64,000 nucleotides of DNA from Eledone cirrhosa. Lineage: Eukaryota. The translations under genes were made by a program, and so were the position numbers. Under the pieces are notes generated by a model that worked only from the letters and a program-made list of their open reading frames with translations, did not search any database and was not told the origin of the DNA. Location: assembly GCA_964016885.1 (NCBI GenBank), contig OZ024743.1, forward strand, positions 363,506,001 through 363,570,000. Reading direction: 5' to 3'. Every line of letters begins with the position of its first letter. Position 1 is the first letter of the stretch. Shown in pieces: positions 10,688 to 64,000 of this stretch.

Positions 10688-12830
10688 CTTAAACCAGCCA
10701 TCCCATTTCGCTTCTCTCGGATCGATTGTTTATTTGCGGTTGCAGGCGTTTGATAAAAAGCGCTTCCTTGATACGTAACTGCCGACGTTTCATTCAGTCG
10801 CTAGAATTGTGACAATGGGCCTTCCATCTTTGTTTCCGCATTTGTCTATGTGTTTCCGGAAAGACGAGGTCCTGGTTTTAGTGTGTTCCTTGATCCGGAT
10901 GTGCAAAGGTCGGATTGTGCTACCTATGTAGTATTGGTTGCACCTGTCACATTCTATCTTATACACGACGCATGTGCGTAGGCAACAGTTCGCATGGTGT
11001 ATCGGGCAGTCTCTGAGGGAGCATGCGTCAGTAGATTTCCCGGGTTTCCTGGAGAGGCATCTTCGCAGGGAGGGGCCCGAGTGGGCCAGGTGGATGTCGA
11101 GGCCCTCCCTCCGTATAGCCTTGTGGATAGCGTTGGTGGTATTCTCGCCCAGGTGTGGAATTTTAAGGAAGCACTTGCCTTGGGTGTATCTCTGTCTCTT
11201 GTGTCTGGTGTCTCCTATTCTGTCTGTGAGCGAGGTAGGGTACCCGTTCGTCTCCAGCACCTCGAGGAATCGCTTGGTATGAGTGACACCACTCGCGGGA
11301 TCGCTGCATCTGTTTTTGATTCGCGCGATCTCGTTCGTGATGTATCCTCTTTTGGCACTGTTAGGGAGGGCGGACTTGTAGTGAACGAACAGGTCCCTGC
11401 AGGCTGCCTTTCGGTAGAAGTTGCAGTGGATCCTTCCCTGTTCCGTGATGTTGATTCGGAAGTCGAGGAGGGCAAGTGACCCGTCTTCGTTGGGGTGTTC
11501 AACCCTGAAGTCAATGTTCTCGTCCGTGTTGTTGAACGCCTCATAGATTCTGTTCGCCGTGTTTTGGGAAGATGTGAGGATGAGGATATCGTCCACGTAC
11601 CTTGAGAAAAAGGCTACGGCGTTGGGGTGGCAGGCGTTGAGTGCCTTGCGTTCGAGGTTGTCCATGTAAGAGATCGCTAGCACAGTTGATAGGCTTGATC
11701 CCATGGGCAATCCCATGGTTTGTTGGTATGTTTGGTCAAGGAATCCGAAGTAGGTGTTGTCGACGACGATGGATAGGAGTTGGTGGATGTCAGTGGTGGT
11801 GAGCCCGAAGCAGTGTAGGTCGGTGGATTGGAGGCGTTCCATCAGTATATTGACGGCTGGGAGTGCCGGGACCGAGGTGTAGAGAGCGACTACATCAAGG
11901 CTGAAGGCATATCTGTTATTCCTTCTGGTGTCGGGATCCATTTGGTGCAGGCGCTTCAACACCTCCTCGGAGCTGTTAACGTGTCCCGGCAAGGTGTCTA
12001 AGATGGGTTTGAGTATTCTGGCTAGGAGCCATGAAATTTTGTAGAGTGGTCCCTCCACGCTCGATACGATGGGCCTGATCTTCAGGTCGGGTCCCTGTTT
12101 GTGTGTTTTCACGAGGTGGTAGAAGGCGGGTAGTCTGCTGTTCCTCGTGAGGAGGTTGTATCTCAGCTTCTTCGGGAGCTTCCGCCGGTCGCACATGTTG
12201 GTTCAGGCGGCGTTGATGTGCTCTTCTATCTGCGCGGGAGTGATTCCCGTGACCTTGGAGTAGAGGTTGTCATCGTCAAGGTGTTGGAGGGCCAGGGTGT
12301 TGTAGGCCTCTCTGCTGATGACGCAGAATTCTTTTCCCTTGTCGGAGGGGAGATAGATGAGGTGCTTCGATTTTAGAGTGGTGAGTTGAAATTTGGTGAG
12401 GTTATGTGTTGTGCGTGTGTGTGTGTGTTTGTGAAGTATATCCGAGATGGAGTGTTTTAGCCTGATGAGTTTAGTGTCGAGTTCGTGGTTGGTGGGTGGG
12501 GGGGGGTGGAGTGGGTTGCCGGGGTGGTAAGTGGGGAACTTGGGGTGGGTTGCGTGGGCGCTGTTATTTTCTGTGGCGCTGTTGATGGCGGTCACCCATT
12601 TAAGTTGGTAAGCGGCTCGACAAAAAGTTGGCCTCGATGTTGTGATTGAGTCTGTCGTCGAGACGTTGTGAGACGATGAACTAGGGTCCGAGGTGTAGGA
12701 GTTTCAGCTCGTCGCTCGTGAGAGTGCCGGTTAGGTCGGTGACCAGGTGCGTCGCATCGTTGAGGTATGGCTCGTTGTTGGTGGATGCGGCGGTGGCGGT
12801 TGTTAAGTTGTTGCTTCAAGCAAACTTCAA
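10688..12830 (-). pseudogene. Penelope-like retroelement ORF: reverse transcriptase + GIY-YIG endonuclease, lightly disrupted
   Basis: IRPIVS, SLDVVALYT, GLPMGS, RYVDD, then VVYKIECDRCNQYYIGST...RIKEH; in-frame TGA at 12203-5 and 10790-2; frameshifted tail LRIKEALFIKRLQPQIN. Confidence 0.95.
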
Positions 12831-43224: not shown

Positions 43225-44300
43225 TTTTCCCTTTCTCTTAATTTCGAGTATATTTTTTTGACCGGCCACCTTCCTGGTGGCAATGTTGTAAAAGAAAAGA
43301 AATTGTCATCCCTTGAATCGCAAGAATGTTTTGCAAATTTTGAAGGTGCCAGCTATCGCAGCCATTTGTAGACTATGAATTAGGGAGCTGCGCTTTTTGT
43401 CCGCAAATCCAAGTTCAGTCATACTTTGGTCCAAGCGGGTTGGTATATAACCCGTAGCACCAATAATGATGGGTATGAAGCTAAAGGTGTATCTTGGATA
43501 CTGGATTTGTAAACTCCTCATCAATGGTCCGTAGATGTCCTCCTTCTCCTGTATTTTTCTGACAACGTTTACATCAAGTGGGCAGCTGATCTCCACAACA
43601 GAACACGTTTTCAATGTGTGGTCCCAAACTACAATATCAGGCCGGTTGTGCTTTAATTTGGTGGCAGTTTTTATTTTCAGGTTCCACCAGTATTCCTTAG
43701 TGCCATCTGTCTCAATATATTCTTCCTCGTTTGTTTTTAATTTTGTTTTCCGAAGTGCGTTCCAGATGGTTCTAGCTATCCCATCGTGTCTCATGGGGAG
43801 GTAGTAGCGAGATGACATTCTTTCGCAGCTGGCAACAATGTGGCTTACATCCTCGATCTTTGTTTTACATAGCCTACATTTATTGTCAGCTGCTGGCCCT
43901 CCTCTTTTGTGCAGCAGATATTTGGTAGGGAGTTCTTGTTCCTGTATTGCATAGAGATATCCCTCAAGGTGTGATGTCATAAACTTGTCGGAACTCCATG
44001 CCAGGCTTTTTGAGTGGTTTATCCCCTCTATGGTCTGTGTTTTACGCCTCAAGTATCCATGCACAACTTTTTCTGTAAATTGGTCAATTTTTTTTATCTT
44101 GTTTGAACATTGAATAGGATCTTCCGATTTCTCTGGGTGAGAGATTTATATCAGGCTTTATTCCATATCTCTCCTCCAGATCAGTCGCTATTCTAATGAT
44201 ATTTCTTTTTTCATGGTCATAAACCTGGGCAAGATGGTTGCCAACCTTTTTCCTCTGTTGAAGGTGTTGCTTCAGTGTTACTATCCGGGTCTCATATGTT
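43225..44300 (-). mobile_element. 5'-truncated R4/Dong-like non-LTR retrotransposon (CCHC knuckle + PD-(D/E)xK endonuclease; ORF 43306-44064)
   Basis: AIQEQEL, CRLC...E..SHIVASC, RHD, NRPDIVV, VEISCP, IPIIIGATG; sits in a (TATG)n tract. Confidence 0.9.
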
Positions 44301-50878: not shown

Positions 50879-51169
50879 TAGAACGCAATGTTAAAAAAGA
50901 AATAGAAAGATTGAGGTGACGGCCAATGGCAGAAGCGAAAAGAAATTTAATAAATCCTTCTTGATTCTCACGTTCTAGGCAAAGATGCTTCAGGATTTTC
51001 CTACCTCTTCTAACTTCCCGCCATTGTCGTATTTTATCTTATATTCATTAAAATCAATTACAATATTCTTCCATATATTCCTTAATCATTATCAAATATT
51101 ATATCGACATATTTCGTTGATTTTGTTCTATCTAGCTATTTATCTATCTAACTAACTATATATATCTAT

Positions 51170-54100
51170 TTGCGGCAACTCAACGAATGAGACCATCATC
51201 ACCACCAACAACAACAATAACAACATTTCATTTGCAGCAACCGTTGCTAAGCAACAGAATTTTAAATATTACCTTTTAAAAAGTCCCAATATTTGGAAAA
51301 AGCTTCCAACTATGTGACGTTTGAGGGAGACACCACACACATACACATACCCCCACAAGTAAGAGAGATGACACAGAAAAAGAAACTAATCTATAGAACA
51401 GTTGACATCATTACCAAAAAAACCATAACGCTCCCAACAAGCGCTATTGAAGCTGCACTAAAAGATATCAAGCCAGACGTGGCATACCTCCGAAGAGCTA
51501 AACAGTATGGAAGTGTGTCAGTGCTCTTTAAGGGTGAAACTCTGGCTCAAAAACACTCGGTTCACCCAATAAAAACGGATCAACACATCTTCTTCCCCAC
51601 ATACATGGGAAGAAGATCCTGCAAAATAAAAATAACCAGGATCCCAGCAGAAGTCAACATATGGTGGATCCTACACTGCATCCTGTAGAAGGATGAGGAC
51701 ACCCTCCTATCTGTAGACAGGACAGATCGGAATAACTGGTTTGGAACCTGTATCGAGGTTCTGGTATAAATGAGGCCAGAGAAAGTTGAGAAAATCCCGG
51801 ACAGGATCGTCCTTGAGGAAGATGTCATCTCCATTTTAGGGGAGGGGAAAAGACCTCAGTGCCATAAGTGTGGTGTGGGAAAACCACACACTTAAAGGCC
51901 TTTTCCCCTCTCTTAAACAAACCGAGGACAAACAAGGTGTTATTACCAACACCAAAACCCCAACATCAACACCCCAAACCAAACCAAACACAACACAAAA
52001 ACCTGCAACATCCACTCCCACACCACCACAGACCAGAGACAACCACACACACAAAATCCAACTAAAAAACCCTCCATTGCCTCCTCCCTCCCTGTCAAAT
52101 ACTTCTACAAACACCAGCACAAACACTCTACCACACAACATACACCTCCCATCTACCCTCTGATTCAGAAGTCCCAGACACGGGAACCTCTACATCTCCA
52201 AGTGAGAATGAAGGGGAACGCCAAAAATCCAAAAAACAAAAAAGAGACAAAAAACACAAAAACAAAAACAGCTACAGAAAACACGCACACACCAACCCCA
52301 CCATAAACACACCGCCACAAACGACAAACACACCAACAACACAATCACCACCAACACAACCAAACACTTCACCAAGAAAACAAACACCCACACCACCACA
52401 ATCACAAACCCCAACCAAAAAAAAAACAAACAAAAACAGCACACATAAAAAACAAAACACATTACACATGCATAAAAACAACAAAAAAAGAATTGGTAGA
52501 CACTGTCCGAAAGGACCCCACTATCCAAACGGAAGGGAAAACCTTCCCCACCAACGACCCATCCCCAAACCTCAAACTGATCAGGGTAACAACCCTACAA
52601 CATGAAACATTGAAAGGGACCTTCCCATATGATGTGAGGCCCCCTTGCCAAAAACACCTTAACCGTGTCCTGCTACAAGGATTCCCTCCCTCCCCAAACA
52701 CCTCCAATCTGGACATGGAGATCGAACAACCCGACCTCTAGGAAACAAAAAGGTAAGTGTTCCTGCCTTTTCTCTCCCTAACTCTTCTTCACCAACATGG
52801 GGACTATACAAGTTGGATGTTTGAATGTAAGTGGCCTGGGCATGCCCTGGAAACAGGGCCAGATTTTAAATGATCTCAGGTCAAATTGTATAGATGAGAT
52901 AGCCATCACGGAGTCCAGGATTCACGACAGGCAGCAACTTTGAGATCTACGCATCTTTCTGTCATCCAGGAGGTGGAGGGGGACATACTGTTCTGTTTCG
53001 AAAAATCTTGGATCTCAAAGCACAAACGATTCACTTGGACCCGGAGCGCAGCTTGCTGGTCCTGGACGTGAATGGTAGTGAAGGTGGAGCTTTCAGACTG
53101 GTTGCCGTATATGCCCCGACTGGGACATCGCAACCAGAGTTCTTCAAGCGTCTGGAGCCATTCCTGGGAACGTCCCGCTCATTAATGTTAGCGGGGGACT
53201 GGAATGGCATCTTAGATGCACGTTGGGACTATGTAGGAGCTTGTGATAATAGAAGGGGGTGTAATAGCCTAAAAAATCTCATCAGCCAATTCCAACTGGC
53301 TGATAGATATCGACTAGACTTCTCAAGTGTACCACTGTGGACGTGGAGCAACCGCACTGGGTCTTCTAGATCATATTTAGATCGATTTTTAATTAGACAG
53401 AAAGATAAGGAAACATTAAGCTGTCCACAAATGCACATGGTTCCCTATTCAGACCACAAATTAGTCATCTGCGTAGTCAACCTTGATAGAACACATAGAC
53501 AGGGATCCGGATACTGGAAGCTAGACATGTTGCTTCCGGCGCGTAAGGCCTACAGTAAACGGATTAGCACCTTAGCTAAGTGCCAGTTGACGGGGCGATC
53601 GTCAACAACAGGTGGTGGAGCTCTCTCAAGAGAGAAATTAGAATAGAATCGATAGCATTTAGCAAGGAAGTAGCTTTAGAAAAAAACAAAACCGAAAAGG
53701 AACTGGTAGCTAAAGTAGAAGAGGCCCTTAGGAATGGCAGTACAGTTGACGTGCTAGCGGCGAGAACGGCCCTAGACCAGTTCTTCAACGTGAAACACGA
53801 AAGTTATATTGTCAGAAGTAGAAAACGTGCTCCAAGAAACGAGGGGGCCAAAGCTGTTAACTGGGTCCGAGTGGCAGAGGGGAAAAGTGGCAACAAATCC
53901 ACAATTCGGTCCTTGCAAGACAAAGGACACACTCTACTTGAATCCAAGCAGATGTGCACGGCCTTCCAGCAGCATTTTGCACAACTGTTGGGGCAAAGCG
54001 GTACGTCAAGGGAGGTGATAGACTTCAGCTCCTACCTCGACGGCGTACCACGACTCTCGAACACGGATGCCGAGAGCTGCGAAAAGCCGATCATAGCGAG

Positions 54101-56152
54101 CGAAATAGAAGATGCCCTAGGCCGCTGTGGGAAACGCAAGTCACCCGGTTTAGATGGTCTACCCTATGTGTTTTACATAGGCATGCCAGACTTGTTCTCT
54201 GGCGTCATCGAAGCGGTCTACTGCAACTGGCAGCAGAATGGGAGAATTCCCAGTTCTGTAGGCAGAGGCGTAGTAACGCTGATCAGGAAAGATGAGAACA
54301 AGGGGGATGAGATAAGCAATTTCAGGCCCATAACTCTGCTCAACACAGAGTTAAAGATTTTGGCCAAGTTGTAGGCAGCGAGGCTGGCGCTTGTCGTCGA
54401 GAATCTGGTAGGGGAAGCGCAAACGTGTACAATCCCGACCAGGTCCATACACGACAACCTCCACCTCATGCGATACATCATAGAGAGGGTAGGGTGTAAG
54501 CCTGGCTTTGGTGGGGCTCTGATCAACTTAGATCAGTCTAAGGCATTTGATAGGGTCGACCATCAATACTTGGAAGCGGTTCTCAAGGCGGCCAGCTTCG
54601 GTCCCGTCTTCAGAGGCTGGGTCGCTGCCATGCTTACCAGCATCTGCTCAGCAGTCAAGGTGAATGGCTACCTATCGGAGCCATTCCAAATTATGAGTTC
54701 CATCCGTCAGGGGTGCCCTCTCTCCTCCATTCTGTATGTACTGACTCTCGAGCCGTTACTGCGGAAGTTGGAGCTGTTGCAGGGCATCCCGATCGAACCA
54801 GGATTGCGGAAAGCAGCGTCGGCCTATGGCGACGACATAACCGTAATGGTGTGGGAAACCTCGGACATCGGGGTAATCGGCAACCTATTACAGGAATACG
54901 AAACGTTGACAAGAGCAAGACTAAACCCAAACAAGTCTGTCGGTTTGCAACTCGGCACATGGAGAGGCAAACCCATACCTTCTGACAGTGTGGTTGGACG
55001 CTGGACGGAAGGACCGGTGAAATTTCTCGGGGTCCGGTCTGGTCCAGACATCCAGGTGGACAAGAACTGTAACGAGGTCACGGCGAAGGTTTTTGCACTC
55101 ACCCAGAAGTGGGCTCAGTGCAAACTCTCCTTGAAAGGTCGAGCGGAGTTGGCGAACACTTACATAGCGTCCGTCATCTACTACTGCTTGACAGTCGTGC
55201 CTTCTCCCCCGCGAATACCTCACCAAAATGGAACGCCTACTCTTCAAGTTCCTCTGGAAGAAACAGGCTCCATTGGTGAGGAGATCCATCTGCTGTCAAC
55301 CCTTCTAACAGAGGGCTGGGCATGCTGTGGCTGATGATGTGCAAACACGCACTGAGGCTATGCCATCTCCAGGTGTTCCTGACCGGTGAACCGGCGTGGC
55401 TGTCGTTTGTGAGACTAGCTCTTCCACAACTCGTCTCACTAACAGAGCTGCAGTCCCGGGTCAAGCGAAGACCGAATATGGGTGCCTGGAACCTCGAGTG
55501 CCTTCAGGCGCTCACAGTCCTCTACCAAGCGGAAACGTCAATCAGCGGAAACTCCACTTCGACATTCTATAGGGGATTAGTGGAGGATAAGTGCGATGAC
55601 GTTCTCGGGGAAACTCTAGGCATCGAGGAAGACGAACTGACCAGTCTGTTCGGAAGGACTTTCCGTCCAGGGCCTATGGATAACTTCCAGAGGTCTCTGG
55701 CCTGGCAGTACTACCGAGGAGCTCTACCAGTTCGAGACAAAATCTACAGGAACGGACGCCCTGGCAGAGATCCTGCCAAAAGGACGTGTCCAAGATGCGA
55801 GCAGGACATCGAAACCGTTCTGCACGCAATTGTTCAGTACACAGGGGTAACCAACCTTTGGAATTATGTCGAACAACTACTGTCACGTGTGGGACGCAAC
55901 CAGTTGTCAGCCGAGTCCATCGTGAGGATCACCCTGCCGCTATCATTTAAGAATGAAGGAGAGGAGGTCTTCCTCTGTCTTGGTGGCTATGGCGAAAGAG
56001 GTAATATGGTGGACGAGGTTAAAAGGACTGAGGGCAAGCACCTTTCTCTCCGGACAACAACTTATCCCCTTCTTTATGTACCACTTCAGAAGGAAGGTGA
56101 GAGTAGAGAGAGAGGCGCTACACCCCAGTAAATTCGCTGAACGGTGGGTGAA
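51170..56152 (+). mobile_element. L1/Tx1-like LINE copy 1: disrupted ORF1 (~51170-52756) and ORF2 (52797-56152), 3' end missing
   Basis: APE motifs GDWN, YLDRF, SDH; RT motifs KSPGLDG, FRPITLLN, DQSKAFDRV, RQGCPLS, YGDD; CPRC..E...H; multiple stops and frameshifts. Confidence 0.95.
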
Positions 56153-59100
56153 AGAACAGTTTTCACAGGACGTTTGCAACCCCTGCCAAAAACCAACAAA
56201 CCGTGTCCTGTTGAAATGTTTCCCCACCCCACTCAACACCCCCACCAGCACTCAAATGGAGATTGAATAACCCGATCTCCAGGAAACGAAAAAGTAAATG
56301 CACCTTTTCATCCTTTTCGCCAACTCTTCTCCACCAACATGGCTGACTTACAAGTTGGAAGCGTGAATATGCGTGGCCTAGAGATGCCTTGGAAACAGGG
56401 CCAACTTTTAAACGACCTTAGGTCACACGGTATAGATGTAATAGCCATCACCGAGTCCAGGATCCACCACAGGCAGCAACTAACCCCCATCTTCAATGAC
56501 TTTGAGATCAACGCATCTCTCTGTCAGTCGGGAGGTGGAGGGGGGGGGGGGGGTGACTGTCATGTTTCGGAAAAACTTGAAGCATTCAGCCTGGTGGCCG
56601 TTTATTCCCCGACCGGGCAATCACAATCGCGGCCAGACTTCTTTAAGCGTCTAGAGTCTTTTCTGGGAATGTCTCGCTCCTTGCTTTTAGTGGGGGACTG
56701 GAATGGTATCCTAGATGCACGATGGGACTATGTGGGAGCATGTCCCAGTAGAGGGGGTGTGCAACAGCCTCAAAAATCTAATCGGCCAATTCCAACTGGC
56801 TGATAGATATCGACTAGATTTCCCTACTGCACCACAGTGGACGTGGGCAAACCGCAGCGGGACATCTAGATCGTATCTAGATAGGTTTTTCATTAGAGAG
56901 AAGATGTTAAGCTGTCCAAAAATGCACATTGTTGCCTATTCAGCTCACAAACTAGTCGTCTGCATAGTCAACCGTGATAGAATACATAGACAAGGACCCG
57001 GATACTGGAAGCTCAACGTGTCGTTGCCGGCACGAAAAGCCTACAGTGAATGGATAAGTAGATTAGTTAAGCAAGAGTTGAGGGAGCCATGGTGGTACTC
57101 TCTCAAGAGAGCAATTAGAGTAGAATCGATAGGGTTTAGAAGAGAATTAGCTTTAGAGAAATAAAAATCAGAAACAGAACTAGTAGCCAAGGTAGAAGAG
57201 GCGCTTAAGAGTGGCAACGCAGCTAGAGTGCAAGCATCGAGAACGGCACTGGACCAGTTCTTCGACGCGAAACACGAAGGCTGCGTGATCAGAAGTAAAT
57301 CACGTGCTCTAGGAAACGAGGGAGCAAAAGCTGTTGGCTGGGCCGGCGTGGCGGAAGCGAAAAGTGGCAACAAGTCCACGATTCGGTCTTTGAAAGACCA
57401 AAACGGACGCTTGCTACTTGACCCCAGGCAGATGTGCGCGGCCTTTCAGCGGCACTTTGCGCGACTGTTTGAGCAGAACGACGGTGCACCGAACGGGGCA
57501 ATGGACTTTGGTTCATACCTCGACGGCCTGCCACGTCTCTCGAGCATGGACGCCGAGTTCTGCGAAAGACCGATCACAGCCACTGAGATACGGGAAGCTC
57601 TGGGCCGCTGCAGGAAACGCAAATCATCCAGTCTAGATGGTCTACCCTATGAGTTTTACATAGGCATGCCGGACTTCTTCAGTGGCGTCCTCGAAGCCGT
57701 CTACAACAATTGGCAGCAGAACGGGAGAATTCCCAGGCAAGGGCGTAGTAACGCTGATCAGGAAAGATGAGAACAAGAGAGATGAAATAAACAATTTCAG
57801 GCCCATAATTCTGTTCAACACAGAGTGAAAGATTTTGGCGAAGGTGCTAGCAACGAGGCTGGCGCTTGTCGAAAACCTGGTAGGGAAAGCGCAAACGTGT
57901 GCAATCCCGACCAGGTCCATACACGACAACCTCAACCTCATGCGATATATCATAGAGAGGATGGGATGTAAACCCGGCTTCGGTGGTGGTCTGATCAATT
58001 TAGATCAGTCTAAGGTATTTGATAGGGTCGACCATCGATATTTGGAAGCGGTTCTCAAGGCGGCCGGTTTCGGTCCCGTTTTCAGAGGCTGGATCAAGGC
58101 GATGCATACCAGCATATACTCAAAGGTCAAGGTGAGCGGCTACCTATCGGATCCGTTCGCAATCACGCGTTCCTTTTGACAGGGATGCCCTCTCTCCTAC
58201 ATTCTGTACGTTTTGACTCTAGATTCACTACAGTGGAAGTTGGAGCTTTTGCAGGGCATCCTTTTAGAACCGGGACTGCGAAGAGCGACGTGACGGTAAT
58301 AGCGTCGAAAACCTCGGAAATCGAGGTAATCGGCAACCTACTACAGGAATACAAAAGGTTCACAGGAGCAAAACTGAACCGGGACAAGTCTGTCGGTTTG
58401 CAACTCGGAACGTGCAGAGGCAAACCGATGCCGTCCGACAGCGTCGTCGGACGCTGGACGGAAGGACCGGTGAAATTGCTCGGGGTCTGGTTCGGTCCAG
58501 ACCTCCAGGTGGAGAAAAACTGGAACGAGGTCCTGGCCAAGGTATTTGCGCTCACCCAGAAGTGGGCAGAGTGCAAGCTGTCTTTGAAAGATCGAGCGGA
58601 GGTGGCGAACACTTTCATAGCATCCGTCATCTACTACCGCTTGACTGTCGTGCCTTTCCCCGTGAATACCTCACCAAGATGGAACGCATGCTCTTCCAGT
58701 TCCTGTGGAAGAAACAGGCTCCACTGGTGAGGAGATCCGTCTGCTTTTAACACCCTTCCGATGGAGGGCTGGGCATGCCGTGGCTAATGATGCGCAAACA
58801 TGCGCTGAGGCTACGGCATCTCCAGGTATTCCTCACCGCCCAACCGGTGTGGGCACCGTTTGTGAAACAGGCTTTCCCACAACCGAGCTGCAGTCCTGGG
58901 TCAAGCGAAGACTGAAGAATACTGAAGAAGATGGGGGCCTGGCACATTGAATGCACCCAGGCGCTCACAGACCTCCGTCATGTGGGCACAGCAATCAGTG
59001 GAGACTCCACTTCGACATTCTATAGGGGGTTAGTACTTTAAAAGTGCGACGACGTGCTCGGGGAGAATCTAGGCGTCGAAGACGACGAGATCACCAGTCT

Positions 59101-59893
59101 GTTCGGTAGGACTTTCCGCCCGAGACCTATGGATAACTTCCAGAAGTCCCTGGCCTGGCAGTGCTACCGAGGAGTTCTACCCGTTCGAGATAAGATCTAC
59201 AGGCACGGACAACCCGGCAGGGATCCTTCCAAGAGGACGTGTCCAAGATGCGAGCAGGACATTGAAACTGTCTTGCACGCAATTGTACACTGCCCGGGCG
59301 TAAGCGATCTGTGGAACTATGCAAACAACTGCTGTTGCGTATGGGACAAATGCAGTTCACTGCCGACGAATCCATAGTAAGGATCAAACTGCTAGCCTCT
59401 TTCAAAAATGAAAGAGAGGCGGTTTTCCTCTGTACAGTGGCTATGGTGAAAGCTGTTATATGGTGGACGAGATTGAGAGGACTGAGGACAGATGCCTTTA
59501 TCTCCGGACAACAATTGATTCCCTTCTTTAAGTATCACTTTAGAAGGAGAATCAGAGTGGAGAGAGAGGCATGGCACCCCAGTAAGTTTACTGAAAGGTG
59601 TGTGAATGAAGCGAAAATGGCCCGAGTGATTGTGCCTTCTCTGTTTATAAACCTGTAGGTTAAAGAAGAGAGCAAAAAGAAGAAAGGAGCACTTGCACAA
59701 CACGCTCCTCAAGTTGAGGGTTGTTCTATCGATGGGGTATTAAACAACCCATTTGTGGTGCCTCCCCCCTATTGGGGATTTCGATTGTTATAATTGTTTG
59801 TTTCAATATTTTTACACGACTGTTGGTAAAAGCCCCGGCATGTGTCTTTGTATTGTCCCCTTTTCTTGTGCATCCTTGTGGCATATAAAGAAG
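56148..59893 (+). mobile_element. L1/Tx1-like LINE copy 2: ORF1 tail + disrupted ORF2 (56339-59658) + 3' UTR
   Basis: Collinear with copy 1; YxDD removed by a deletion near 58280; CPRC...H...C knuckle; ends tataaagaag + (tatc)n. Confidence 0.95.
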
Positions 59894-60138
59894 TATATCT
59901 ATCTATCTGTCTATCTGTCTATCTATCTATCTATCTTGATAGAGTAAGACACGCTTCGCATCGGCTCCGCTATTCCATCGGGATTTACCCTTACTATTGT
60001 AAGTACCGGATAAATTTTTTAGTGCAACACATTTGGAACACTAACCCCTGTTATTTAGGGAAACATTTTTGCATTTACCCCCTTTTTAGGGGGTAAAATA
60101 AATATCTATTTTTGCCGAAAAATTTCTTTCTTGGCAGC

Positions 60139-61974
60139 ATGGCGGAAAAGATGGCAGACATGTCTGCCATTAGCTCTGCCACGCCCCCCAAGTCTGAAGA
60201 ACAAAAAATAATTACAACAAAATTAGACATTGAAACAAACAAACAAAATGAAAAAACAAATGTTAAGGAAAATGAGCAAACAGAAAACAAACAAACAGAA
60301 AATAATACAAATAACGACAGGGCAACTTTCGCCCAGAAAACAAAGCAATCCATTACATACACATCAATTGACCTAACTGCCGCCAGAGAAAAACTGGCCG
60401 AAGCAAAGAAACATATTGTTTTGGGGGAAAACGGAATGTTTTCCATTAACTCCCCCCCAGAATTCAAGAAAGCCAGAGCAGAAAACACAGTTATATACAG
60501 AACTATACTAAACCAGTCAAGAAAGCCAGCACAGCCCAGCCAAATGGAAATAGAGTTAGTCCTAAAAGACTATATGAAGAATATTCTCTTCATACGAAAG
60601 GACCGACTCTATGGCAGCATTTCGGTCCTAACAAGAGACAAAGAAACGGCGGTTCAGCTTTCCCTAAGCCCACTCTCGTCGACAACATATAGCTTCTATC
60701 CCTCCTACATGGGTAGAAGAACTCAGAGAATAAAAGTAAAAACAATGCTGCCCACAATGGACTTCTGGTGGGCTATTGCTGGCTTCATTGATATGGGCGA
60801 AGACACTATGCTGTCAATGGGGAAGGCAACTGGAGATGCGTTCCTGGGAATGGGCCTCGACATACTAGTCCAAATGAGGCCCGAAAGAATAGCACAAATC
60901 CCGGATCGCATCTGGCTGGATGACCTTACCCCAATAGACATAATTGTAGAGGGGAGAAGACCAGCATGCTATTTATGCATGGAAAGGGGACACGTTAAGG
61001 CTAACTGCCCGAAACGTATCCCCCAAAAAGGACTATTGCCCACACCCACCACAAACAGTACACCAGCACCACCCACCTCCAAAAATACACTAATACCACA
61101 CACAGCAAACAAAATACAGACACCACCAACCACAAACACAACACAAACATCACCACCACCAGCACCAAACACAAGCACGACACAAAAATCACCACCACCA
61201 ACCACAACACAAACATCACCACCACCATTACCAACCACAAGCACGACACAAACATTACCACCACCACCACCACAAAACCCATTCCAAACAAATAATAAAA
61301 AAAACAGTAACAAATCTACCCCTCCCGCAAAAAAAAAACAACCACACAACACGTCCCTCCCACCTAGCGCTGAAGAGTTTCCCCCAACTTCTGAAGAAGA
61401 AGGAGGAGAAGCCTTCAGACAAGTTAAAAGAAAAAAAAGAAAACACACACCCAGCACACCACAAATAACCCACACACAAACACCAACTCCAATCAAAAAC
61501 ACCCCACCCTCAACAAACAAAAATAAATCTGCGCCTCCCCTCTCCGAAACATTGACAGCATCACAAAAAAAGACGTTGCAATACACATATATAAATAAAG
61601 AAAACAAAAAACTGGTTAAATTAATAAACAATAACCCTATGGTGCAGACCGAAGGGCCAAACTTTATCTCAACAGAGAACTTCACCCATTTAAAAATGAT
61701 AAAGGTCCCTCTGGACCTTTATCGTTCCTTAAAAGAACAATTTAGACGGGACGTGAGCCCCCCCTGTTTAAAACCGTTGAATCGCGTCCTCTTGAAAGAT
61801 TTCCCCATAACCGCCCCTCTCCCTGACACAACTCCAAATACCCCAACCCCACCACACACGTGTACCCCCACACCACCACAAAACATCCCTCCACCCAACA
61901 CACCTGATGCCATGGAAATTACGCCACCCGGAGAGGTAAGTGCTTTTCTTTCTTCACTTTCAACACCAAAATAG
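60139..61974 (+). CDS. LINE ORF1 protein (~611 aa; RRM-like region, CCHC knuckle, Thr/Pro-rich linker, conserved C-terminal block)
   Basis: gcagcATGG start; CYLCMERGHVKANC; DVSPPCLKPLNRVLLKDFP conserved in copies 1 and 2. Confidence 0.9.
   Translation: MAEKMADMSAISSATPPKSEEQKIITTKLDIETNKQNEKTNVKENEQTENKQTENNTNNDRATFAQKTKQSITYTSIDLTAAREKLAEAKKHIVLGENGMFSINSPPEFKKARAENTVIYRTILNQSRKPAQPSQMEIELVLKDYMKNILFIRKDRLYGSISVLTRDKETAVQLSLSPLSSTTYSFYPSYMGRRTQRIKVKTMLPTMDFWWAIAGFIDMGEDTMLSMGKATGDAFLGMGLDILVQMRPERIAQIPDRIWLDDLTPIDIIVEGRRPACYLCMERGHVKANCPKRIPQKGLLPTPTTNSTPAPPTSKNTLIPHTANKIQTPPTTNTTQTSPPPAPNTSTTQKSPPPTTTQTSPPPLPTTSTTQTLPPPPPQNPFQTNNKKNSNKSTPPAKKKQPHNTSLPPSAEEFPPTSEEEGGEAFRQVKRKKRKHTPSTPQITHTQTPTPIKNTPPSTNKNKSAPPLSETLTASQKKTLQYTYINKENKKLVKLINNNPMVQTEGPNFISTENFTHLKMIKVPLDLYRSLKEQFRRDVSPPCLKPLNRVLLKDFPITAPLPDTTPNTPTPPHTCTPTPPQNIPPPNTPDAMEITPPGEVSAFLSSLSTPK
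61934..61941 (+). promoter_or_regulatory. Consensus 5' splice donor at the ORF1 end (homologues at 52753 and 56294)
   Basis: AG|GTAAGT in copies 1 and 3, AA|GTAAAT in copy 2. Confidence 0.5.
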
Positions 61975-64000
61975 ATCAATTGAGAGTTGGCTGTTTGAAC
62001 GCGCGTGGCCTGAGCTCAGCTTGGAAGCAAGCAAAGCTTCTAAGTGACCTCAGGTCACAAAGTATAGATGTGATGGTTGTTTGCGAGAGTCGGATCAGCA
62101 GCGTGAGACAGCTGGCGCCCGCCTTCGATGACTTTGAGATGCACGCATCTCTCTGTCAACCCGGAGGCGGGGGGGGAGTTGCCGTACTGCTGGATAAACG
62201 TCTGACTCTCGACGTACAGATTGTTCACTCGGACCCGGGGGGTCGATTACTGGTGCTGGACGTCGGAGGTGGTGAAGGCGGGGCTTTCAGACTGGTCGGT
62301 CTTTATGCTCCCTTCGGGGCGGAGAGAGCCGACTTCTTCCAACGTCTGGAGACTTTTCTAGGAACGTCGCGTTCCCTGCTTTTAGTGGGGGACTGGAATG
62401 GAATCCTAGATGCGCGTTGGGACTATGCAGGGGCATGTCCCGATAGAGGGGGGTGTAGCAGCCTCAAGGGGTTACTCGATCGATTCGACCTGGTCGATAG
62501 ATTTCGACTAGATTGTCCAACTGCGCCAACCTGGACCTGGGCAAACCGCAGTGGACAATCTAGATCGTACCTAGATAGGTTTTTGGTTAGGAGTAAGGAT
62601 AGGGACGTATTTAGTTGTCCAGAACTGATCATGGTTGGCTATTCAGATCACAAATTAGTGACCTGCGTGGTCAACCTTGATAGAACGCATAGACAGGGTC
62701 CCGGTTACTGGAAGATGAACTTGTCCTTACCGACAAAGAAAGATTACAGAAACCGGATTAGTAGATTAGTTAAGATGCGGTTGACGGGAGCGATCGTCAA
62801 CAGTAGGTGGTGGATATCTCTAAAGAGAGAGATTAGAGTAAGTTCGATAGGTTACAGTAAGGAACTAGCGGCGAATAGAAATAGGAGGGAAAGGGAGTTA
62901 ACAGATAAACTAGAAGAGGCGATTAGGAGCGGAGACGTAGCCAGAGTGTTAGCGACGAGAACGGCATTGAGCCAGTTCTTTGACGCGAAGCACGAAGGCT
63001 GCGTTGTCCGAAGTAAAATACGTGCTTTAGGAAACGAGGGGACCAAAGCTGTTAGCTGGGCCCGCGTGACAGAAGCCAAGAGTGGGATTAAATCCACCAT
63101 TCGGTCTTTGCGAGACCAGGATGGACGGGTGATCCTTGAACCTGAGCGAATGTGCGAGACCTTTCAAAGGCACTTTGCTCGACTGTTCGGAGGTGGCGGG
63201 GGGCCGGACGGGGATGTGGACTTCGGTCCATACCTCGACGGTCTACCGCGTCTTTCGAGCGGCGAAGCGGAGTGCTGCGAAGGGCCAATCACAGCCACTG
63301 AAATCGGGGAAGCGCTCAGCCAATGCAGCAGACGCAAATCCCCGGGTCTCGATGGTCTACCATACGAACTTTATTTAGCTATGCCGGTCTTGTTCTCCGA
63401 ACTCCTCGAGGCTGTCTATTGCAACTGGCAACAGAACGGGAGAATTCCCTGTTCTGTGACCAAGGGCGTGGTCACGCTAGTGAGGAAGGACGAGAGCAAG
63501 GGGGACGACTTAAGTAACTTTAGGCCCATAACTCTGCTGAATGCAGAGTTACAGATTTTGGCCAAGGTGTTGACGAAGAGGTTGGCGCTTGTGGTGGGTG
63601 GTTTGGTGGGAGACGCGCAGACATGCGCTATCCCGTCCAGGTCCATTCACGACAACCTCCACCTCATGCGATACATCATAGAGAGGGTTGGCTACGAACC
63701 CGGCTTTGGTGGGGCCCTGATCAACTTGGATCAATCTAAGGCGTTCGATAGGGTCGACCATGGTTACCTGGATGCGGTGCTAGCGGCGGCGGGCTTCGGA
63801 CCCGTTTTCAGGGGCTGGATTTCTGCCATGCACAGTGGCAACATCTACTCTAGGATTAAAGTAAACGGCTACCTCTCGGAGCCGTTTCAAATCACCCGAT
63901 CCATCAGACAGGGGTGCCCCCTCTCCTCCCTTCTGTACGTATTGACTCTCGAGCCACTGCTGCGGAAGTTGGAGTTGCTGCGGGGCATACCCCTGGAACC
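61971..64000 (+). CDS. LINE ORF2 (APE endonuclease + reverse transcriptase), 3'-partial; missed by the ORF track
   Basis: Hand translation is open for 676 codons: IDQLRVGCLNARG...CESR...GDWN...YLDRF...SDH...KSPGLDG...FRPITLLN...DQSKAFDRV...RQGCPLS. Confidence 0.93.
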   Translation, partial: MDQLRVGCLNARGLSSAWKQAKLLSDLRSQSIDVMVVCESRISSVRQLAPAFDDFEMHASLCQPGGGGGVAVLLDKRLTLDVQIVHSDPGGRLLVLDVGGGEGGAFRLVGLYAPFGAERADFFQRLETFLGTSRSLLLVGDWNGILDARWDYAGACPDRGGCSSLKGLLDRFDLVDRFRLDCPTAPTWTWANRSGQSRSYLDRFLVRSKDRDVFSCPELIMVGYSDHKLVTCVVNLDRTHRQGPGYWKMNLSLPTKKDYRNRISRLVKMRLTGAIVNSRWWISLKREIRVSSIGYSKELAANRNRRERELTDKLEEAIRSGDVARVLATRTALSQFFDAKHEGCVVRSKIRALGNEGTKAVSWARVTEAKSGIKSTIRSLRDQDGRVILEPERMCETFQRHFARLFGGGGGPDGDVDFGPYLDGLPRLSSGEAECCEGPITATEIGEALSQCSRRKSPGLDGLPYELYLAMPVLFSELLEAVYCNWQQNGRIPCSVTKGVVTLVRKDESKGDDLSNFRPITLLNAELQILAKVLTKRLALVVGGLVGDAQTCAIPSRSIHDNLHLMRYIIERVGYEPGFGGALINLDQSKAFDRVDHGYLDAVLAAAGFGPVFRGWISAMHSGNIYSRIKVNGYLSEPFQITRSIRQGCPLSSLLYVLTLEPLLRKLELLRGIPLE

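Follow-up and report, generated by a model that had tools for sequence, protein, structure and literature searches.

Three long interspersed nuclear elements (LINEs) that lie in series in a 64,000-nucleotide (nt) stretch of the Eledone cirrhosa genome (contig OZ024743.1, positions 363,506,001 to 363,570,000; hereafter the window) carry a conserved splice donor at the end of open reading frame 1 (ORF1) and, directly after the stop of ORF2, a stretch that is predicted to pair with the donor region. Conservation and folding predictions lead us to propose that the donor and the complementary stretch gate a splice that would remove ORF2 and yield an ORF1-only mRNA, a reading to which we assign a probability of about 0.45. 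The element class is an ordinary one, while its conserved RNA architecture is real and apparently undescribed; splicing of ORF2 is plausible.

The Donor at the End of ORF1

The original prediction placed a donor 35–45 nt before ORF2 in all three copies. These sites were verified at 52753 (AG/GTAAGT, the slash marking the putative junction), 56294 (AA/GTAAAT) and 61936 (AG/GTAAGT), with measured distances to the ORF2 start of 44, 45 and 35 nt for copies 1, 2 and 3, respectively. The site in copy 2 is a decayed AG/GTAAGT. The TAA within the donor does lie in the ORF1 frame in copies 1 and 2, as had been noted, and the earlier in-frame TAA of copy 2 is CAA in most of its relatives.

Nine junction types were collected: A (represented by copy 3), S1 (copy 1), S2 (copy 2), D, E, F, G, H and J. 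The motif G/GTRAGT was found 28–45 nt before the ORF2 start in eight of the nine, the ninth, J, being a single decayed copy with GTAGGT. The claim that the donor is kept while its flanks differ was upheld, positions −1 to +6 reading G/GTRAGT in 7/7 families compared. ORF2 identity between intact families falls to 69%, and only 112 of 322 columns of fourfold-degenerate sites are invariant among five intact families; in 17,157 nt of ORF2 sense strand, GGTRAGT is seen just two times. At the donor, families A and F are in ORF1 phase 0, families D and G in phase 1 and the remaining junction types in phase 2, which by parsimony corresponds to at least four changes on the tree. Donors and acceptors were ranked with crude scores of our own devising, set after the sites had been seen; by this measure the donor was the top-ranked GT site in four of six families and tied for the top in the other two. 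Judged by its conservation, the donor is a selected RNA signal, because it is kept in eight of nine junction types, in all three ORF1 frames and in a relative with 41% ORF2 identity (see below). As in copia-type elements, the structural ORF here ends in a conserved donor that matches U1.

Two further observations concern variation at this site. Of the 100 family A matches listed, 5 carry a GTAGGT variant; it is also present in the copy adjoining the window, and has propagated as a sublineage. Among old S2 copies, the +1 G of the donor is changed in 5/30, compared to a mean column divergence of 0.03, reflecting either a mutation hotspot after a run of A or selection against live donors in dead copies.

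Predicted Pairing of the 3′ Untranslated Region with the Donor Region

The conservation of the donor had been recognized in the original prediction, but the long-range complementarity that covers it had been missed. Computed duplexes showed that the first ~60 nt after the ORF2 stop, at the start of the 3′ untranslated region (3′UTR), are complementary to the donor region. For copy 3, no duplex elsewhere in the element was as stable as the one beginning at the ORF2 stop (−36.3 kcal/mol, versus −26.7 kcal/mol for the next best). When the arm was taken to begin 14 nt ahead of the donor and to end at the ORF2 start, and was tested against the 60 nt after the ORF2 stop, these 60 nt were the best partner in 6/6 whole elements and also in family H; overall, this predicted clamp was the best site in seven of eight whole elements. 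Compared to dinucleotide shuffles, the duplex had z scores of −2.3 to −6.2 in 7/7 families. Cognate pairing of the arms ranked first of 5040 permutations with this longer arm, which was picked after the co-fold had been seen; with a shorter arm lacking the exon side, the figure was 2 of 5040 and the pairing was weak in families E and F.

The predicted helix spans both sides of the donor and extends into ORF1. In 7/7 families it ends 0–7 nt before the ORF2 start on one strand and begins 1–5 nt after the ORF2 stop on the other. The sense strand is more stable than the antisense strand in six of seven families, with 33 G–U among 254 pairs. The complementarity and its family specificity are established from the sequences, and the clamp as a structure is a folding prediction; the complementary stretch of the 3′UTR appears to co-evolve with the donor region. 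A local hairpin in the 3′UTR uses the same strand as the clamp, so that the two structures would be mutually exclusive. Because a near-perfect donor is kept while its mask appears to co-evolve with it, the open and the hidden state of the donor would both seem to matter.

The ORF2 Stop as a Candidate Acceptor

The stop of ORF2 in copy 2 is a TAG followed by G and, as had been proposed, resembles an acceptor. The ORF2 of copy 3, which is intact beyond the window, likewise stops on CTGTAG/G, and CTRTAG/G forms the ORF2 stop in 10 of 11 end types. This AG ranked first or second of ~260 AGs in five of six families. Much of this conservation can probably be explained by coding and descent, and the acceptor is weaker evidence than the donor, because TAG versus TAA is a twofold site and the pyrimidine tract is mostly dictated by the amino acids. 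The expectation that both GT and AG would be more conserved than their flanks held for the donor, whereas the acceptor, although top-ranked in five of six families, is largely explained by coding and is weak in the 41% relative.

The predicted splice would leave ORF1 almost whole, and joining donor to acceptor would put an in-frame stop within three codons in six of nine families (P = 0.08). The original prediction also had the splice append a basic tail to ORF1. The frame after the copy 2 stop reads as quoted there, but the tail is not conserved: it is 28 residues long in S1 and S2 alone, 42 in one more family and 1–3 in six others. A functional basic tail was rejected. Also rejected was a mini-intron fusing ORF1 to ORF2, since the phase varies by family and no AG precedes the ORF2 AUG in S1, S2 and E.

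A Relative at 41% ORF2 Identity and More Distant Elements

The relative with 41% ORF2 identity forms tandem arrays on CAXXMW01 contigs, which are filed under a bacterial metagenome-assembled genome; these eukaryotic LINE arrays are likely to be host contamination. It has AAG/GTAAGT, with the donor 1 nt after the ORF1 stop, in 19/19 distinct contexts. Of its three top-scoring acceptors, two follow closely on the ORF2 stop, which speaks for ORF2 splicing; the acceptors 51 and 264 nt past the stop are better than the AG of the stop itself, and the one at 264 nt is conserved. A second donor lies 13 nt after the ORF2 stop in 30/30 copies, and another is found in the 5′UTR.

Distant L1-like elements from metagenomes were sampled at 80 loci with 54 long ORFs, 28 of which had a locatable N-terminus. 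A donor matching at 8 of 9 positions was found within 130 nt in 3/28 (about one expected by our own arithmetic) and a TAG stop in 4/42 closed ORFs; the arrangement of donor and TAG is therefore not general. Three similar-looking distant metagenome elements (L112, L114 and L118) have an 8-of-9 donor 77–117 nt before the ORF2 N-terminal motif.

Proposed Mechanism

In the mechanism we propose, U1 would bind the donor during transcription. With the 3′UTR start folded into its local hairpin, the donor would be open and would be joined to the AG of the ORF2 stop, leading to an excess of ORF1 protein with a trivial change at its C-terminus. With the 3′UTR start paired to the donor region, U1 would be displaced, and the unspliced RNA would be exported, translated for ORF2 and reverse-transcribed. 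The spliced RNA, having neither ORF2 nor the clamp, would rarely be copied. In its fullest form, this model places the whole of ORF2 in a regulated intron, with a riboswitch-like 3′UTR that picks, by hairpin or clamp, between a spliced ORF1-only mRNA and the genomic RNA, and with a donor old enough to be shared at 41% identity. We hold this full form tentatively, at somewhat less than an even chance.

Observations Against Splicing of ORF2

A number of observations weigh against the removal of ORF2 by splicing. Retrotransposed ORF1-only copies with the exact junction, comparable to SpIREs or HAL1-like copies, whose search the original prediction had suggested, were not found: the 399 copies matching the family A junction were all unspliced, with 0 joins from the donor to the 3′UTR, and in S1 and S2 together there were 0 exact joins versus 720 unspliced junctions. 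None was seen although spliced copies would be short and easy to complete; their absence lowers the probability of splicing without refuting it, because a spliced RNA without ORF2 would need to be mobilized in trans. No donor–acceptor joint was seen among the matches listed from contigs of a single sample (15 of 344, and 7 more), but the kind of sample is not on record and the contigs behave like DNA, and they are hence uninformative on splicing.

On the acceptor side, one decayed end type stops on TAA. Twofold A/G sites are invariant in 34/80 columns, so that the acceptor alone is not clearly beyond chance, and the pyrimidine richness of the acceptor exceeded the amino-acid expectation in just one of five families. 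In families D and E, a CAG precedes the ORF2-stop acceptor by 7 nt. In the 41% relative, no clamp was found; a hairpin loop contains the AG of its ORF2 stop, which comes 30th of 249 AGs and is missing from 3/30 copies. In family J the clamp site was not among the top three, and cognate pairing was the best in its row in just five of seven families. Finally, the donor-bearing stretch of the family A 5′UTR was unspliced in 40/40 copies fetched, which suits U1 sites that do not splice.

Open-ended join patterns were also applied, each of which catches ~4 in 10 arbitrary joins. They turned up small local mutants together with one candidate, L219 (G000:C2:135301199-135304230). In this S2 copy, the donor is connected to a TTAG that lies 127 nt further on, early in ORF2. 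It is without 128 nt, and its join is one base short of a precise splice; L219 may be a spliced retrocopy or, equally well, a microhomology deletion. Word-index searches with ORF1 protein for spliced C-termini gave nothing, and a HMMER search with ORF1 gave 111 matches, 10 of which were compared and, at about 25–33%, are too distant for spliced C-termini to be judged. We also rejected an ORF2-only RNA made from a 5′ donor as the copied form: among copies picked by their ORF2, the ORF1 end was kept in 30/30 of family A, 9/9 of G and 12/12 of D.

Competing Explanations

The main alternative, which we consider somewhat less likely, is that the donor is a docking site for U1 that is not productively spliced and that guards the transcript from early termination or lets it mimic intron-containing RNA. 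The clamp would later evict U1, so that just the full-length RNA would be 3′-processed and exported, and the acceptor would be a by-product of the TAG and the hydrophobic C-terminal codons. Docking would accommodate the absence of spliced copies in A and in S1 and S2, as well as the extra donors: GTRAG(T) is present close to the 5′ end in families A, D, E, G and S2, and the 41% relative has one behind its ORF2 stop (30/30). ORF1 of family A also contains several AATAAA motifs. U1 blocks premature termination in the Arabidopsis Ty1/Copia element EVD (PMC5580714), and an RNA whose 5′ splice-site motif stays unspliced is held back from export and 3′ processing (PMC4380460), which would give the clamp a job. 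However, docking leaves unexplained the top-ranked AG at the ORF2 stop in most families and the lean to phase-matched early stops, and the ORF2 sense strand offers just 0–2 AATAAA motifs to protect. Moreover, docking and splicing coexist in EVD. By analogy, both may coexist here, and clamp-gated splicing is favoured over docking without splicing.

We considered it improbable that the clamp is mainly a translation device, keeping the ORF2 start hidden until it is opened by a ribosome that completes ORF1, and bringing the start and the stop of ORF2 side by side; any splicing from the donor would then be to weak acceptors early in ORF2 and would only dampen ORF2 expression. The helix edges at the ORF2 start and stop in 7/7 families agree with such a role, as does family A, which has no ORF2 AUG and an ORF1 stop overlapping ATA, and ORF2 initiation is affected by RNA structure in SART1 (PMC3894237). 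The early join in L219 would also fit, but it is one base off a precise splice and suits a microhomology deletion equally well. The helix, however, crosses the donor into ORF1 with family-specific pairing, and the 41% relative has the donor without a clamp.

It is very unlikely that everything is a by-product of the G-TAA stop context, of inherited sequence and of pyrimidine-rich versus purine-rich composition: in S1, S2 and E, ORF1 stops on the TAA, the subfamilies have common ancestry and the clamp is weak in E and F when shortened by its exon side, but the motif is kept where TAA is not the stop, varies as GTRAGT/GTAGGT alone and is present at 41% identity, and composition was controlled by dinucleotide shuffles and cognate permutations, so that this explanation is largely refuted for the donor and the clamp and stands for the acceptor.

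The Elements in the Window

The three related copies (Table 1) run in series from 51170 to the window end, and two more lie beyond it; the source genome is 3.0 Gb. Pfam matches of ORF2 are Exo_endo_phos, RVT_1 and a weak zf-RVT, and its best PDB match is human L1 ORF2p (E = 5e-47, versus 2e-23 for R2). The ORF1 of copy 3 had no Pfam match, and contains a CCHC knuckle of the form C-x2-C-x4-H-x4-C. A CCHC zinc knuckle in ORF1 is a feature of the Tx1 clade. The elements have a separate upstream ORF1, no long terminal repeats (LTRs), 5′-truncated copies and a simple-repeat or A-rich tail, as do non-LTR elements of the L1 group with an apurinic endonuclease. These properties fit Tx1-like LINEs, a putative placement drawn from the architecture of the elements. 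No Rfam match was found in 51000–64000, and the elements had no match among viral contigs.

The copies are hosted by (TATC)n tracts, often the tail of an older copy. A TATC/CTAT tract is found at the start of 40/40 family A copies, and the three family G 5′ ends listed lie in (ATT)n. Family A is young, the 1166-codon ORF2 frame being open in most of 150 scored matches; 40/40 of its copies that extend to the ORF junction have a complete 5′ end, whereas older S1 and S2 copies are often cut within ORF1. In family A, ORF2 begins with ATA instead of ATG (at 61971 in copy 3), overlapping the ORF1 stop, in 32/32 family junctions. The ORF1 of copy 3 reads through the donor in phase 0 to its stop at 61972–61974. 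By its sequence, translation of this ORF2 would need non-AUG reinitiation or a −1 slip at the ORF1 stop. A stretch of the copy 3 5′UTR (59999–60090) is intron-like, with GTAAGT, CTAAC, a pyrimidine tract and AG.

Table 1. Features of the three LINE copies, in window coordinates.
Feature	Position	Strand	Remarks
Copy 1 (subfamily S1), decayed LINE	51170–56152	+	5′-incomplete; 3′ end of ORF2 replaced by copy 2; boundaries approximate
Copy 1 donor AAG/GTAAGT	52750–52758	+	Contains ORF1 stop TAA (phase 2)
Copy 1 ORF2	52797–56152	+	Endonuclease, reverse transcriptase (RT), zf-RVT; broken
Copy 2 (S2) 5′ arm of predicted clamp	56280–56338	+	ORF1 end, decayed donor at 56294, pyrimidine-rich spacer
Copy 2 ORF2	56339–59658	+	Broken; acceptor-like end TAG at 59656–59658
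Copy 2 3′ arm of predicted clamp	59659–59712	+	3′UTR start, complementary to donor region; competing local hairpin at 59686–59708
Copy 2 3′ end and (TATC)n tract	59878–59934	+	AATAAA in most copies; insertion site of copy 3
Copy 3 5′UTR, second donor-like GTAAGT	59999–60004	+
Copy 3 (subfamily A, young) ORF1	60139–61974	+	Intact, 611 amino acids; CCHC knuckle at 60967–61008
Copy 3 5′ arm of predicted clamp	61922–61970	+	Donor at 61936 (phase 0)
Copy 3 ORF2	61971–64000	+	Intact, without AUG (ATA overlaps ORF1 stop); runs past window to CTGTAG/G and 3′ arm

Two other fragments were seen on the minus strand of the window: RT and GIY-YIG frames of a Penelope-like element at 10790–12703, and a zf-RVT-bearing piece of another non-LTR element at 43306–44145.

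Significance and Comparison with Known Systems

The excess of ORF1 over ORF2 protein in LINEs, and their choice of full-length RNA for copying, are usually ascribed to a single unspliced RNA on which reinitiation is inefficient. A donor under selection, together with an apparently co-evolving antisense mask, would instead point to a nuclear step in setting the ORF1:ORF2 output and in the choice of full-length RNA and, if true, would mean that a non-LTR element uses splicing much as retroviruses do. Were ORF2 not spliced at all, the clamp would still act as an RNA checkpoint on full-length transcripts, and our searches found no such checkpoint in print. The exact bases for compensatory tests can be named, in a young family of hundreds of near-identical copies.

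Literature searches, whose coverage leaves out most subscription papers, turned up no description of a LINE with ORF2 as its intron or with a clamp of this kind. In TART, the introns described belong to antisense transcripts (PMC1636488). For Octopus vulgaris, a repeat annotation gives 13 L1-Tx1 families as recently active (PMC13282606); the main text of that paper has no occurrence of "splic" or "intron", and the repeat library behind it may include the families described here.

Among known LINEs, the elements resemble the Kibi and Koshi type of the Tx1 clade in the L1 group (PMC4494074), sharing a CCHC knuckle in ORF1 and an ORF2 with endonuclease, RT and zf-RVT. Both insert into simple repeats, but the targets differ, being (TATC)n and (ATT)n here, and the ORF1-end donor and the predicted pairing of the 3′UTR with the ORF junction set our elements apart from Kibi and Koshi as described in the available text. 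SART1 has an overlapping ORF1 stop and ORF2 start, as in family A, and structure affects its ORF2 initiation; however, it relies on UAAUG and on a structure that lies locally downstream (PMC3894237), whereas the long-range helix predicted here bridges 3.4 kb and covers a donor.

Human L1 is likewise a LINE with conserved donors and acceptors whose RNA mostly escapes splicing, and structure may hide its donor from U1, according to the authors (PMC5860796). In contrast to the site described here, the L1 donor lies in the 5′UTR and is kept for a RUNX3 site, and splicing is harmful. Spliced L1 retrocopies (SpIREs) do exist, making up about 2% of full-length copies, but none removes ORF2 (PMC5860796). 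The short gag mRNA of EVD (PMC5580714) is also like the present case in having a conserved U1 site, which in EVD makes a structural-protein-only mRNA and protects the full-length RNA. EVD, however, is an LTR element with a short intron around the protease that is tied to early termination, as shown experimentally, whereas the intron predicted here would comprise the whole 3.4 kb ORF2, keep the normal 3′ end and be governed by a predicted antisense clamp.

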